From the IMG/VR virus record IMGVR_UViG_3300022758_000056, positions 1-5,649 of that record: a DNA stretch of 5,649 nucleotides. One strand, 5' to 3'. This DNA comes from a virus. The notes beneath the pieces were generated by a model, which worked only from the letters and a program-made list of their open reading frames with translations, was not told the DNA's origin and did not search any database. Positions 802 through 5,649 of this stretch are shown in pieces; the first letter of the stretch is position 1; each line of letters begins with the position of its first letter. A program made the translations under genes and the position numbers.

Positions 802-1131
802 ATGGAGAACAAACCATGGAACGTAAGAGACCAGACCGACGAGAACCTTATGCGGGAGTTGACGAAAACCTACAAAGCGATAGACGCCGCATACAGTATG
901 ATCAGAAAGGCCGCAAAATCGAAGACGCAAAATATTACGTTGACCTTGTGTTCCGAAAGAAAGCAGCTGCAAACGACATTGAGGTGGAAATCCTCAGAAG
1001 GGAAATCAACCATGGCAAAGAGGAGTAAAGTCCGCAAATCGAAAGACGCAAAAATCTACAACAAGACCGCACGAAAGACCAAGGCAATCAACCTGGGAAG
1101 CGGGGCAATGCGAGGGGGTATCCGACTGTGA
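802..1131 (+). CDS. 109-aa ORF whose C-terminal 39 aa form the basic DNA-binding module; a possible long isoform
   Basis: ATG 802 follows GGAGG (791-795) with a 6-nt spacer. However, codons at about 920-1011 in this frame have poor coding periodicity (about 10% G at position 1). Confidence 0.35.
   Translation: MENKPWNVRDQTDENLMRELTKTYKAIDAAYSMIRKAAKSKTQNITLTLCSERKQLQTTLRWKSSEGKSTMAKRSKVRKSKDAKIYNKTARKTKAINLGSGAMRGGIRL
816..1028 (+). CDS. Hypothetical 70-aa protein
   Basis: ATG 816 follows GGAG (804-807) with an 8-nt spacer. Periodicity is strong, with about 40% G at codon position 1 overall and about 49% in the 3' half. The sequence looks plausible (...KIEDAKYYVDLVFRKKAAANDIEVEILRREINHGKEE). 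Confidence 0.5.
   Translation: MERKRPDRREPYAGVDENLQSDRRRIQYDQKGRKIEDAKYYVDLVFRKKAAANDIEVEILRREINHGKEE
1012..1131 (+). CDS. Small basic DNA-binding/packaging protein (microvirus J / gokushovirus ORF8-like)
   Basis: MAKRSKVRKSKDAKIYNKTARKTKAINLGSGAMRGGIRL is 39 aa with 13 K/R. I recall the C-terminal MRGGIRL-type ending from gokushovirus small basic proteins. A weak SD, AAGGG (997-1001), lies upstream. Confidence 0.7.
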   Translation: MAKRSKVRKSKDAKIYNKTARKTKAINLGSGAMRGGIRL

Positions 1132-1476: not shown

Positions 1477-1933
1477 CTTCAGGGAAACCGCAACGACAAA
1501 ACCTACCGAGGCCGGAGAAACCGTAAGGCGTACATACCTTTGGGAGTTCAACGAAAAAGGCGAAAAGGTCCTGGTGCTTGACCAGATCATCGACCAGCAG
1601 GCGGAAATCGACAGCTATCTAGAAGAGACCAAGCTTGAAAACATCATCCGGCGGGCATCCATCGACCCTGACCTTGCGGCTAGACTGGTGCCAGACATGG
1701 GTGGCGGGCTTCAAGACGCAACCGAGATGCCGGAGAATCTAATGGAGCTGCAGAACATCATGCTGCGGGCCGAGCAAATCTGGGATGAAATCCCAAAAGA
1801 AATCAAGCTCAAGTTTGACAATGACGTTGATAAATTTGTCACAAGCTTCGGCACTGTCAATTGGGCAAAAAATCTGGGCATCTATCAGGAAGCAAAAAAC
1901 CCGAGGGAACCGAAAACGGAGGCGACTGAATGA
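1454..1933 (+). CDS. Internal scaffolding protein VP3
   Basis: AAGGAG (1438-1443) lies 10 nt before ATG 1454; the ORF track starts at an upstream TTG (1427) that has no SD. The C-terminal part, ...MPENLMELQNIMLRAEQIWDEIPKEIKLKFDNDVDKFV..., matches the remembered gokushovirus scaffold pattern (F..LP..IR..F.N.P..F). The stop overlaps the VP1 start as ATGA (1930-1933). Confidence 0.8.
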   Translation: MAYRSVSNFRETATTKPTEAGETVRRTYLWEFNEKGEKVLVLDQIIDQQAEIDSYLEETKLENIIRRASIDPDLAARLVPDMGGGLQDATEMPENLMELQNIMLRAEQIWDEIPKEIKLKFDNDVDKFVTSFGTVNWAKNLGIYQEAKNPREPKTEATE

Positions 1934-2577
1934 ACAGAAACAAAGATGCAGGATTTAACCAAGTACCGCGGCTGGACATTACGCGAAGTCGCTTCAAACG
2001 GCGGCAGGATGTCAAGCTGACGATGAACGCGGGCCAGCTCATCCCGTTTTACGTGGACGAAGTATTACCCGGCGATACCTTCAGCATCGACCAGGCAGCA
2101 ATTATCCGTATGACAACTCCTATCTTCCCGGTTATGGACAACTGTTATATGGATATTTACTATTTCTACACGCCTAATCGTATCATCTGGGACAACTTCA
2201 AGCGATTCATGGGCGAAAACGATAAAGGACCATGGACGCAGACTCAAGAATACACCATTCCGCAAGTCGAAATCACCGGCACAACCGAAAAACCAGCACC
2301 GTACGAAGGAAGCATCATGGATTATATGGGCATTCCTACCAAGGTAAGCAAGGGAACAGATACGGCATTCAGAGTCAATGCACTGCCGTTCCGGGCATAC
2401 GCCATGATTTGGCAGGAGTGGTTCCGAGACCAGAACGTGGACAATCCGGTCATCAACTTCAAAGGAGACGGATTAATACATTACACAGACAATGAAGAAA
2501 AGGAATGGACGGAACAAAGCCCGATCTCCAATACATTCTCAATCAAGCATACACCGGCGGCAGACCTCTACCTGTAA
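1930..2577 (+). CDS. Major capsid protein VP1, N-terminal segment (frame broken before the gene is complete)
   Basis: GGAGG (1918-1922) lies 7 nt before the ATG. Capsid motifs include RSRFKRRQDVKLTMNAGQLIPFYVDEVLPGDTF, FYTPNRIIWDNFKRFMGEN and LPFRAYAMIWQEWFRDQN. It ends at TAA 2575-2577, while the remaining capsid sequence continues in another frame. Confidence 0.9.
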   Translation: MNRNKDAGFNQVPRLDITRSRFKRRQDVKLTMNAGQLIPFYVDEVLPGDTFSIDQAAIIRMTTPIFPVMDNCYMDIYYFYTPNRIIWDNFKRFMGENDKGPWTQTQEYTIPQVEITGTTEKPAPYEGSIMDYMGIPTKVSKGTDTAFRVNALPFRAYAMIWQEWFRDQNVDNPVINFKGDGLIHYTDNEEKEWTEQSPISNTFSIKHTPAADLYL

Positions 2578-3641
2578 ACAAATACCACGACTATTTTACC
2601 AGCGCGCTACCAAGTCCGCAGAAGGGACCAGCAATTAGATTGCCAATAACTGGAAGCGCACCTCTAGGAATGTACAACGCCAGTAACGGAAGCGTAACCA
2701 TTGATAGCCAAAAAATGGAAGAAATTCTGACAAGTGCAGGAATGACAACCTCTGGAAGCTTATTCACCGCAAACACATGGGACATAGGCATGGGCCCTAC
2801 AAGAAACAAAGGCCTTGCGGTCGGAACCGGGACGGAAGAAACGTATACAGGCGTAGCCTTGGGAGCTGACTTATCAAATGTAACAGCCGCAACCATCAAT
2901 CAGCTGCGGCAAGCATTCCAGGTACAGAAGTACTATGAGCAGCTGGCGCGTGGTGGCAGCCGCTACCGCGAGATGATTTACAGTCTGTTCCATACCAAGA
3001 TTTCGGACAAAACTGTGCAGATTCCGGAATATCTGGGCGGTACACGCATCACCATCAACATGAGTCAGGTCATCCAGACCAGCGGCACGACTACCGAGAG
3101 TCCGCAGGGTAACGCCGCGGCAATCAGTGTTACGCCGTACAACGGCAGTATGTTTACCAAGAGTTTCGAAGAGCACGGCTATGTTATCGGCGTGTGCTGC
3201 ATCCGGCATGACCATACCTACCAGCAGGGCTTGGAGCGCATGTGGAGTCGCAAGACTAATCTGGACTTCTACTATCCCGTCTTTGCAAACCTAGGCGAAC
3301 AGGCCATTCTGAAGAAGGAGCTGTATCTCACTGGTACAAGCACCGATGAACAGGCCTTTGGTTATCAGGAAGCTTGGGCAGAATACCGCATGAAGCCGAA
3401 CCGCATCAGCGGCAAGTTCCGGTCAAATGCAAAGGGGACGTTGGACAGCTGGCACTACGGCGACAACTACAAGGAGACTCCGAGCCTGAGCCAGGCATGG
3501 ATGAAGGAAGGAGATTCCGAGATTCAGAGGACTCTGGCAGTGGACAACGAACCTCAGTTCATCATGGACACGGTCATTGACAACACCAGCGTCAGACCTA
3601 TGCCTATGTACAGCATCCCGGGTCTCGTGGACCATCACTAA
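2505..3641 (+). CDS. Major capsid protein VP1, C-terminal segment (-1 frame relative to 1930..2577)
   Basis: Contains PLPVNKYHDYFTSALPSPQKG and the rest of a capsid-length sequence. This frame is open from 2496. The ATG at 2505 has no SD and is probably an internal Met rather than a true start. Confidence 0.9.
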   Translation: MDGTKPDLQYILNQAYTGGRPLPVNKYHDYFTSALPSPQKGPAIRLPITGSAPLGMYNASNGSVTIDSQKMEEILTSAGMTTSGSLFTANTWDIGMGPTRNKGLAVGTGTEETYTGVALGADLSNVTAATINQLRQAFQVQKYYEQLARGGSRYREMIYSLFHTKISDKTVQIPEYLGGTRITINMSQVIQTSGTTTESPQGNAAAISVTPYNGSMFTKSFEEHGYVIGVCCIRHDHTYQQGLERMWSRKTNLDFYYPVFANLGEQAILKKELYLTGTSTDEQAFGYQEAWAEYRMKPNRISGKFRSNAKGTLDSWHYGDNYKETPSLSQAWMKEGDSEIQRTLAVDNEPQFIMDTVIDNTSVRPMPMYSIPGLVDHH

Positions 3642-3676: not shown

Positions 3677-3704
3677 TATAACGTAACAACGACAAAAATA
3701 AAAA

Positions 3705-3740
3705 GTCTCAGCTGAGGGCATCAGCTGAGACCTCAGCTGA
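3705..3740. repeat. Three copies of the 8-bp palindrome TCAGCTGA; the first two form an 11-bp hairpin
   Basis: TCAGCTGA occurs at 3708-3715, 3721-3728 and 3733-3740. GTCTCAGCTGA (3705-3715) pairs with TCAGCTGAGAC (3721-3731) around the loop GGGCA. Confidence 0.75.
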
Positions 3741-3751
3741 TGAAAGGGGGA

Positions 3752-3783
3752 AAGCCCGGGGCAAAAACCCTGGGCTTATTTTT
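3752..3783 (+). terminator. Terminator-like stem-loop with T-run abutting the VP2 start
   Basis: AAGCCCGGGG (3752-3761) pairs with CCCTGGGCTT (3768-3777), giving 10 bp including one G:U. The loop is CAAAAA, followed by ATTTTT (3778-3783). ATG 3784 comes immediately after. Confidence 0.6.
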
Positions 3784-4038
3784 ATGGGATTTTTCGCAGC
3801 AGCACTACCAATACTTAAAACAGTAGCACCATCGATCATAAGCTGGGGCGTGAACAAGCTTTTAGGCGGAAACATGTCAGAAAGCAGCGGAGGAAGCCAA
3901 CAGCACAACGAAAGCTATAGCCAAGGCGGAGGCCAAAGCAGCGCCGCCAGCGGCGTAAACCGAGAGCAAAATCTGCAAGACTGGAACAGTATGCTGGGAG
4001 CAATTCAGAGCAATATGCAAAGCCAGCAAAAAGTTTAA
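3784..4038 (+). CDS. Minor capsid/pilot protein VP2, N-terminal segment
   Basis: MGFFAAALPILKTVAPSIISWGVNKLLGG... followed by a G/S/Q-rich stretch is a typical VP2 N-terminus. It ends at TAA 4036-4038, just after an A5 run. Confidence 0.7.
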   Translation: MGFFAAALPILKTVAPSIISWGVNKLLGGNMSESSGGSQQHNESYSQGGGQSSAASGVNREQNLQDWNSMLGAIQSNMQSQQKV

Positions 4039-4048
4039 CCGTCGAAGC

Positions 4049-4624
4049 ATGTTCGAACAAATGGGCTATAACACCATGGCGGCAATCACTCAGGGTGTAT
4101 ATAACCAGATAAGCAACAACGCGGCGATGGCCTACAACAGCGCAGAAGCAGCCAAAAACAGAGCTTGGCAAGAGCAAATGAGCAACACAGCTTATCAGCG
4201 AGCCGTGGAAGATATGCGAAAAGCAGGCATCAACCCTATCTTAGCGTACCAACAGGGCGGAGCAAGCACGCCAGGAGGTGCACAGGGTACGATCAGTGGA
4301 GCAAGTATGGGTCTCGCAAGCAGCAGTGCAGCGACAGCAAGCGCTCTCGGAGTAAGCCAGAACCACAACAACACATGGAGCAAAAGCGAAAGCAACTGGT
4401 ACAACGCAGCGCAAGCAGTTGGAGACGCAACAAGCTGGTCACACACAAGCGCAGACAAAGCGTTTAATGCATTCAAGGACATCTTCAACGACCTCAGCAA
4501 CCTAAACAGTGGCGTCGGCGGAGGTGCAGGGAGAAAGCCAACCAAAGATGAGCTTGAATACAAGCCGGGAAGAGACTTCATAGGAAGCAAAAACATCGAA
4601 TATTGGAAAGGAAAACTTAAATAA
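4049..4624 (+). CDS. Minor capsid/pilot protein VP2, C-terminal segment (+1 frame relative to 3784..4038)
   Basis: Carries the VP2 signature AEAAKNRAWQEQMSNTAYQRAVEDMRKAGINPILAYQQGG. No SD precedes ATG 4049 or the next in-frame ATGs. This frame is open from 3959. Confidence 0.85.
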   Translation: MFEQMGYNTMAAITQGVYNQISNNAAMAYNSAEAAKNRAWQEQMSNTAYQRAVEDMRKAGINPILAYQQGGASTPGGAQGTISGASMGLASSSAATASALGVSQNHNNTWSKSESNWYNAAQAVGDATSWSHTSADKAFNAFKDIFNDLSNLNSGVGGGAGRKPTKDELEYKPGRDFIGSKNIEYWKGKLK

Positions 4625-4668
4625 ATAAATGGGATGCAATAAACCGTTAATCCGGTTTTATGTACCTC

Positions 4669-4698
4669 ATGACAGAGAGGCGAGCGGGCGTGTATACT
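4669..4698 (+). promoter_or_regulatory. Candidate sigma70-type promoter for rep
   Basis: ATGACA (4669-4674), 18-nt spacer, TATACT (4693-4698), about 35 nt upstream of the rep ATG. The spacing matches the promoter at 587-616. Confidence 0.4.
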
Positions 4699-4710
4699 CG
4701 CTCGCTTCTT
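4675..4710 (+). other. Stable hairpin overlapping the candidate rep promoter
   Basis: The core is GCGAGCG (4680-4686) with CGCTCGC (4699-4705). It extends to 12 bp with two G:T pairs (4675-4686 with 4699-4710). The 12-nt loop contains the putative -10. Confidence 0.6.
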
Positions 4711-4732
4711 TAATGCGACACATAAGACCAGT

Positions 4733-5647
4733 ATGAAATATGAAGATTTGATGTATCGTAAAGATGTGATGATGATTCCATGCGGACAATGCACAGGATG
4801 CAAACTACGCAAGCGCAAAGACTGGGCCACGCGGATGGAGCTGGAAGCATACAGCCACAAAAAGGAAAGCATCTGGTTTATCACACTGACCTATGATGAC
4901 AACCATGTGCCAACGCAGGACACAGAAACAGGGGAAATCTTCAAAGGAGGCGTGAACGTATGGAAAGACACCTCAGAGCGTCCTAGAACGGTGCAAACTT
5001 TAAACGTGGAGGATATCCAACTATTTATGAAGAGGCTAAGGAAGGCCGTCAGCGAGCCTCTCAGATACTTCCTAGCCGGAGAGTATGGAGACAACACCTC
5101 AAGACCACACTATCACATGATACTATACGGGTGGTATCCAGACGACTTAAAGCCAATTCACAGGCTGTCAAGGTTTGGACACTACACGAGCGATAAGCTG
5201 GTCAAAGTCTGGGGACAAGGGACAGTTGACATAGCTCAAGCAACGCCAGAGACGTATAACTACGTAGCTGGATATGTGACCAAGAAGCTGTACGGAAACG
5301 ACAAAGACAAGTACAGGAAAATGGGACTCATACCGCCATTCTGCGTAATGAGCCGAAAGCCAGGACTCGGAGACGAATGGTTTCAAAAGAATCAAGAAAG
5401 ACTATGGCAACTTGGATACATCCAGCTGACAAACGGAAAGAGAGCAGCCATTCCAGAATATTATTGGCGAAAGCTGGAAGCTGAAAATCCTGAAAAGGCG
5501 TGGAGAATCAAGCAGTATCGACAAAAAAATGCCATTGCATCCCTAATCGAAAGAAACATGGAAACTGACAAACAGTATGCCGAACAACTGGCCGATAAAG
5601 AAGCAGTCATGAAGAAGAAGATGTCCAAAGCAAAGGGCGTTTTTTAG
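4733..5647 (+). CDS. Replication initiation protein VP4 (HUH rolling-circle endonuclease)
   Basis: N-terminal PCGQCTGCKLRKRKDW. Motif I is FITLTY (4877-4894). Motif II is HYH within RPHYHMILYG (5108-5116). Motif III is YVAGYVTKK (5261-5287). 304 aa, with stop TAG 5645-5647. Confidence 0.93.
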   Translation: MKYEDLMYRKDVMMIPCGQCTGCKLRKRKDWATRMELEAYSHKKESIWFITLTYDDNHVPTQDTETGEIFKGGVNVWKDTSERPRTVQTLNVEDIQLFMKRLRKAVSEPLRYFLAGEYGDNTSRPHYHMILYGWYPDDLKPIHRLSRFGHYTSDKLVKVWGQGTVDIAQATPETYNYVAGYVTKKLYGNDKDKYRKMGLIPPFCVMSRKPGLGDEWFQKNQERLWQLGYIQLTNGKRAAIPEYYWRKLEAENPEKAWRIKQYRQKNAIASLIERNMETDKQYAEQLADKEAVMKKKMSKAKGVF

Positions 5648-5649
5648 CT
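5523..5649 (+). repeat. Terminal direct repeat, copy B (identical to 1..127)
   Basis: See copy A. Confidence 0.97.

Follow-up and report, generated by a model that had tools for sequence, protein, structure and literature searches.

The major capsid gene VP1 of the gokushovirus genome analyzed here (the window, by which we mean the whole stretch of 5,649 nucleotides) is recorded in two reading frames, and in all likelihood this reflects homopolymer-length errors in the contig and not a frameshifting mechanism. A run of five A residues at 2498–2501 would have been recorded in the consensus as four, and the missing A would throw the 570-aa VP1 out of frame and leave two apparent capsid ORFs of 215 and 378 aa. 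The virus itself would then encode one ordinary VP1 with no recoding. What settles the matter is the presence in the same contig of three further one-base lesions, in orf75, VP2, and VP4, which went unnoticed in the first-pass annotation of this DNA. Because the VP1 slip is one of four one-base run-length slips in the contig, we take it to be a sequencing or assembly error.

Genome and gene content

An end-to-end comparison of the window revealed an exact terminal direct repeat of 127 nt. Since the first and last 127 bases are identical, the window is a circular genome with a unit of 5522 nt, and the repeat is the overlap left by the assembler. The length of the overlap suggests a de Bruijn assembler run at k=127.

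5523–5649, no strand: terminal direct repeat, an exact copy of 1–127

The window is a metagenome-assembled gokushovirus (Microviridae), the genome of a small gut phage. Pfam searches of the window identified Phage_F (PF02305, the F-type major capsid protein of Microviridae), Chlamy_scaf (VP3, a scaffold protein of the Chlamydia phage type), Phage_ORF5 (VP5), and REP_ORF2-G2P (Rep), and the gene order, orf75-orf39-VP5-VP3-VP1-VP2-VP4, is that of the relatives. VP1 is accordingly found in the company expected of a gokushovirus, with a VP3 scaffold, VP5, a VP2 pilot protein, and a VP4 Rep on a circular genome of ~5.5 kb. The closest GenBank records are Gokushovirinae from human and pig feces, with ~80–84% nucleotide identity.

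Several features outside the coding sequences were also observed. Direct repeats with TGTTGAA(A/T) and TTTTGTGG(A/T)TAAC motifs as their units cluster in the noncoding region at 290–470 (families D1, D3, D4, and D5). They may act as regulatory or iteron-like elements near the origin, and a few pig gokushoviruses show ~75–81% conservation over the region. An unusual alternating purine-pyrimidine stretch (CACGCGCGCGCACGCGCACG...CGCGCACATGCACGCACG) occupies 192–238. It lies just 3' of the Rep stop and of a hairpin (19 nt, 135–177) that precedes a T run (families D2 and I1). A promoter-like arrangement of TTGACA, 18 nt, and TATAAC was read from the sequence at 587–616, ahead of the genes that begin at 802; the consensus promoter scan left it out on account of the final C in its second hexamer. 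Two strong hairpins lie downstream of the VP1 stop, one at 3702–3734 (GTCTCAGCTGAGG...CCTCAGCTGA-type arms) and one at 3752–3777, which is followed by ATTTTTAT and is terminator-like on the plus strand; the VP2 start at 3784 comes directly after it. At the boundary of the VP2 stop and VP4 start (4615–4631), the window has 4–5 extra bases, with TAAATAAATAAATG against TAAATG-like sequences in the relatives, where VP4 starts directly after the VP2 stop. The position of these bases is harmless, and they could be natural or a further assembly quirk.

The VP1 split and its break point

The VP1 split is truly present in the sequence, far beyond chance. The N-terminal piece runs from an ATG at 1930 to a stop at 2575–2577 (215 aa, codon starts mod 3 = 1). 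The C-terminal piece is in the frame mod 3 = 0, where no stop occurs from 2496 (just past a TGA at 2493–2495) until 3639–3641, which amounts to 381 codons, or 378 aa when counted from the ATG at 2505. The two frames overlap by 82 nt (2496–2577). Both pieces score far above the Pfam cutoff of 25 bits, and since the N-terminal piece matches positions 2–166 of the Phage_F profile PF02305 (E = 7.5e-46) and the C-terminal piece positions 173–501 (E = 3.8e-99), the two abut on the profile, which is fully covered once they are joined.

1930–2502, plus strand: N-terminal part of VP1, codons 1–191, frame mod 3 = 1 (Phage_F 2–166 and tblastn of the intact protein P0001)
2502–3641, plus strand: C-terminal part of VP1, codons 192–570 and stop, frame mod 3 = 0 (Phage_F 173–501 and tblastn of P0001)
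2496–2577, plus strand: 82-nt stretch open in both VP1 frames (stops at 2493–2495, mod 0, and 2575–2577, mod 1)
2498–2501, plus strand: A4 run with one A missing (A5 in relatives), the VP1 break point (single 1-nt gap against relatives)

Within the overlap only 2497–2504 matters for the break, and the A4 run at 2498–2501 is the sole homopolymer of at least 4 bases in the 82 nt. In a DNA alignment with five GenBank relatives, the window shows just one gap, of 1 nt, inside GAAG-AAAAGG, and a single 1-nt gap at the break was likewise found against five closer contigs (L171, L172, L169, L009, and L008). Four of the latter (L008, L009, L171, and L172), which have an identical local peptide, read GAA GAA AAA GGA ATG GAC and hence A5 against the A4 of the window. 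The conserved flanks around the break are separated by 149 nt in the window, against 150 nt in all relatives of this group. Protein alignment with six GenBank VP1s gave the same position, as the N-terminal frame of the window matches them through ...YTDNEEK and the C-terminal frame from GMDGTKPDL....

Adding one A to the run yields a 1713-nt ORF that aligns with four relatives without gaps. The repaired VP1 has 570 residues, 569 of which are identical to those of P0001, an intact VP1 that carries PF02305. When P0001 was searched against the window with tblastn, residues 1–191 matched 1930–2502 with 100% identity and residues 191–570 matched 2499–3638 with 99.7% identity. Two intact proteins, P0001 and P0004, contain the peptide across the junction, DNEEK followed by GMDGTK, as does P0174, whose frame is unbroken at this point. 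An alternative repair in which GG becomes GGG (AAG GGA) gives the same protein and would be compatible with the window by itself; against it, AAAAAGGA is read in each of the four relatives whose peptide is DNEEKGMDG or DDEEKGMDG, which makes this repair less likely. For the repaired frame, comparison with four relatives gave dN/dS values of ~0.06–0.10 upstream of the break and ~0.10–0.12 downstream, and with such low values on both sides the two halves of VP1 show the signature of a single functional gene. We are highly confident that VP1 is one ordinary 570-aa gene interrupted by a homopolymer-length error, with no recoding involved.

Much of what the first-pass annotation had proposed agrees with these results. 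It had described the split with correct coordinates, read both pieces as capsid sequence, named the A4 run as a candidate site, and projected a joined product of about 570 aa with the junction ...DNEEKGMDGTK.... Its proposal to align the region with intact VP1 homologues did locate the break, at the A run, and the extra base restoring one ORF that it had reckoned would mark an error is seen in the near-identical P0001 and P0174. Three options had been left open, namely a homopolymer indel error, a defective genome, and frameshifting; the first stands, the second is disfavored, and the third is not supported.

VP1 in related viruses

The first-pass annotation had also considered that two separate capsid ORFs might be a conserved arrangement. 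That arrangement is ruled out by the relatives. All 74 distinct relatives that span the VP1 junction, among ~170 related loci fetched, read through it in one frame, and the six GenBank VP1 genes are uninterrupted across it. The top 120 protein matches to VP1 are 546–575 aa long, with most matches at 565–575 aa, and many VP1s from gut gokushoviruses are 80–93% identical to the repaired VP1.

Frame breaks do occur in VP1 elsewhere among public gokushovirus contigs, each at another position. Breaks were seen in L063 (3870–4007), L064 (1456–1467), L152 (2697–2728), and L162 (882–885), while L123 is broken throughout and looks scrambled. As a rough base rate, then, a few percent of the capsid genes in such assemblies are broken. 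These scattered breaks look like sporadic errors, unlike a conserved signal.

Other one-base lesions in the contig

To survey the contig for lesions, we used proteins from three intact relatives as tblastn queries against the window, and made local alignments with five to seven relatives per site and genome-wide alignments with six. In the tblastn searches, orf75 (a small, conserved gene), VP2, and VP4 each switch frame once in the window.

915–918, plus strand: orf75 lesion (gene 802–1028), A4 where the sister protein implies A5 (tblastn frame switch at 903–915)
4028–4032, plus strand: lesion in the gene for VP2, the DNA pilot protein (3784–4624), A5 with one base in excess (tblastn frame switch at 4016–4035)
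4709–4711, plus strand: lesion in VP4, the Rep gene (4629–5647), T3 against T4 in relatives (tblastn frame switch)

The window thus carries four uncompensated 1-nt indels in four genes (915–918, 2498–2501, 4028–4032, and 4709–4711), comprising three contractions (orf75, VP1, and VP4) and one expansion (VP2), in sequence with dN/dS of ~0.1. All four are in A/T runs of 3–5 bases and are consistent against six genomes; A/T runs of at least 3 bases account for only 12.7% of the genome. In the genome-wide alignments they are the sole uncompensated non-triplet indels inside genes. Two other differences were examined and set aside as lesions: the non-triplet gaps in the C-terminus of VP3 (~1892–1917) compensate each other and lie in a variable tail, and the 4–5-nt difference at the VP2/VP4 boundary is not a lesion.

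At the orf75 site, the window has a 1-nt gap against all seven aligned relatives and in six of six genome-wide comparisons. The more distant relatives have AACAA here, and repair with an inserted C was tried; it gave no exact database match, unlike an inserted A, whose product matches exactly a protein (P0126) on a 5588-nt JGI contig. Since it is the inserted A and not the C that gives the exact match, the orf75 lesion is also a run-length change (A5 to A4). The VP2 site has a 1-nt excess against six relatives. Removing one A leaves A4 in the repaired gene and a product of 279 aa, which again matches exactly a protein (P0141) on a 5588-nt JGI contig, and the ORFs at 3784–4038 and 4049–4624 are fragments of this single VP2 gene. 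In VP4, residues 1–28 of the query align at 4629–4712 and residues 28–339 at 4709–5644 in a different frame, and here the window lacks one base, both against five relatives aligned locally and in six of six genome-wide comparisons. The lesion leaves a 304-aa Rep ORF from 4733, which is a fragment of one gene. A sequence look-up with the repaired VP4 (339 aa) returned no exact match, although the break is clear from the alignments.

Sister contigs of the same virus

The intact counterparts of three of the four broken genes are each found on a 5588-nt JGI contig: P0001 (VP1), P0126 (orf75), and P0141 (VP2). From the matching length of 5588 nt and the shared source, the three are probably on one and the same contig. 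This sister would have A5 at the VP1 run, judging from its protein, in which a lysine (AAA or AAG) is followed by glycine. A pattern scan of IMG/VR that allowed 3–6 bases at the run gave no matches, not even the window, exact-protein look-ups of P0001 and P0141 likewise returned nothing, and in protein-guided scans of IMG/VR and the metagenome collection for DNA encoding a P0001-type protein the best match had 92% amino acid identity.

A 5649-nt JGI contig, evidently the window itself, is the sole source of the window's broken products. They are P0172 (the 215-aa VP1 piece), P0157 (the 304-aa Rep), and P0125, a 323-aa product of the gene caller that stands in for the 378-aa VP1 ORF. Look-ups of the 215-aa and 378-aa ORFs in the contig index had no match, and P0172 and P0125 come from the cluster table.

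A further contig, a 1647-nt JGI contig that encodes P0174, is informative in another way. P0174 equals the repaired VP1 of the window for 262 residues, a stretch that spans the junction, before its frame is lost. Window DNA given A5 at 2498 and A7 at 2710–2715 translates to P0174 exactly (313 of 313 aa).

2710–2715, plus strand: A6 run within the VP1 gene, of correct length in the window and A7 in the 1647-nt JGI contig (the simulated product equals P0174)

Since P0174 is reproduced by A7 at this run, the same virus from the same source has had different homopolymers miscounted in different contigs. On the evidence of the predicted proteins, the same virus appears at least once with the run lengths of orf75, VP1, and VP2 all correct.

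Origin of the lesions

Our reading is that the lesions probably do not stem from the virus but from sequencing, consensus calling, or amplification. The VP1 lesion is a single-base homopolymer change against intact near relatives (A5 to A4 at 2498–2501), it is accompanied by three like events elsewhere in otherwise constrained coding sequence, and the sister proteins P0001, P0126, and P0141 are intact while P0174 errs at another run (A7 for A6). One observation counts against this reading, in that the k=127-like overlap hints at a short-read assembly, in which such errors are less usual. De Bruijn assembly at k=127 is usually performed on Illumina reads, where indels in runs of 3–5 bases are uncommon.

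An alternative, which we regard as unlikely, is that the four indels are true mutations, carried by a variant that replicates only when co-infecting intact genomes complement it, or are slips of the polymerase made in whole-genome amplification of the sample. Replication, too, is prone to slip at homopolymer runs, an intact and near-identical genome exists as a possible helper, and five of the related contigs (L063, L064, L123, L152, and L162) have VP1 frame breaks of their own, albeit at other positions. Such a genome, however, would have to carry four lethal frameshifts in a single consensus, each arisen independently, and three of these would hit genes (VP1, VP2, and VP4) that are essential in the microviruses studied so far. 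Moreover, VP1 differs from the intact copy by only 1 aa in 570, a ratio of indels to substitutions unlike that of mutational decay. With another contig of the virus broken elsewhere, at a different run, the pattern resembles random miscalling, not a lineage, and the circularity of the contig speaks against a decaying integrated prophage. A stronger form of the idea is that all four lesions are real and that a multiply defective gokushovirus is maintained at high frequency by its intact sister, perhaps with low-level slippage at the A/T runs; we think this more doubtful still. If the lesions were real, they would bear on defective interfering genomes in single-stranded DNA phages, but nothing here favors that.

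Frameshifting and transcriptional slippage

It is highly improbable that VP1 is produced by ribosomal -1 frameshifting, in which the Lys-tRNA would slip from AAG (2500–2502) to AAA (2499–2501) at A_AAG. The idea has a basis in the sequence, as the site is a Z_ZZN tetramer (A_AAG, 2499–2502) in the correct register for the N-terminal frame (codons GAA GAA AAG), and a slip there would yield the exact homologous junction ...EEK followed by GMD.... In E. coli, A_AAG is the most shift-prone of the -1 tetramers (PMC4066793). Tetramers that lack a stimulator nevertheless gave only ~0.147% frameshifting against a background of 0.112%, and even the best of them, A_AA.G, reached ~5.6% with the strong IS3 pseudoknot, the top of the measured range (Sharma et al. 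2014, PMC4066793). Thus, ~0.15% for a bare tetramer and at most 5.6% with a pseudoknot are far too low for the most abundant protein of the virion.

The surroundings of the site do little for frameshifting either. The first-pass annotation had seen no canonical slippery heptamer and no obvious stimulator, and we came to the same view. The heptamer at the site is A_GAA_AAG, in which the P-site GAA cannot re-pair on AGA, and there is no X_XXY_YYZ sequence. RNA folding was compared with that of shuffled sequences in a search for a stimulator, an approach that does not specifically cover pseudoknots: the 98 nt of downstream RNA (2503–2600) fold at -10.1 kcal/mol with z = 0.22, and 113 of 200 shuffles fold as well, while a wider fold (2470–2580) has z = 0.84 and is no better than the shuffles. 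No Shine-Dalgarno-like element (GGAGG or AGGAG) is present in 2480–2499. The two-frame arrangement is conserved in none of the 74 relatives, and frameshifting in this contig would have to extend to three more genes, by +1 in VP2 and by -1 in orf75 and VP4. Among the papers searched, none links Microviridae capsid genes with frameshifting.

Least credible of all is transcriptional slippage, in which RNA polymerase would restore the missing A in a fraction of the mRNAs: the lesion does sit in a homopolymer, but productive slippage needs ~8–9 or more A/T, the run is too short for this (A4 in the window and A5 in the relatives), and the gene of the relatives is intact with A5.

Implications for annotation

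There is nothing biologically new in the VP1 split, which is a correct observation of an artefact. VP1 should be annotated as one 570-aa gene, and orf75, VP2, and VP4 need one-base repairs as well. The source annotation already records the truncated products, namely the 215-aa and 323-aa VP1 fragments and the 304-aa Rep. For genome scans more generally, this case offers a useful control: when an essential gene appears split, the other genes of the contig should be checked for like lesions before recoding is considered.

Comparison with known systems

Known bacterial -1 frameshift sites, such as those of dnaX (A_AAA_AAG) and of the IS1/IS3 family (A_AAG), have in common with the VP1 site a tetramer in the right register. 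Unlike them, the VP1 site is without a heptamer, an upstream Shine-Dalgarno-like element, conservation, and, judging from the folding comparison, a downstream hairpin or pseudoknot. The known sites also make a minor or regulated product, whereas VP1 is needed in bulk.

Homopolymer miscalls in assemblies offer a closer parallel. As in the window, these miscalls add or remove one base at a time, only within short A/T runs; several can occur per contig, in both directions and at different runs in different contigs, with the coding sequence otherwise pristine. Such miscalls classically come from flow-based and nanopore reads, and in this respect the window differs, as its k=127-like overlap hints at short-read de Bruijn assembly. 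Compared with the VP1 genes of other Gokushovirinae (for example, PV067914, KT264790, and MG945138), the window stands apart only in its recorded frame, which is off by one base.
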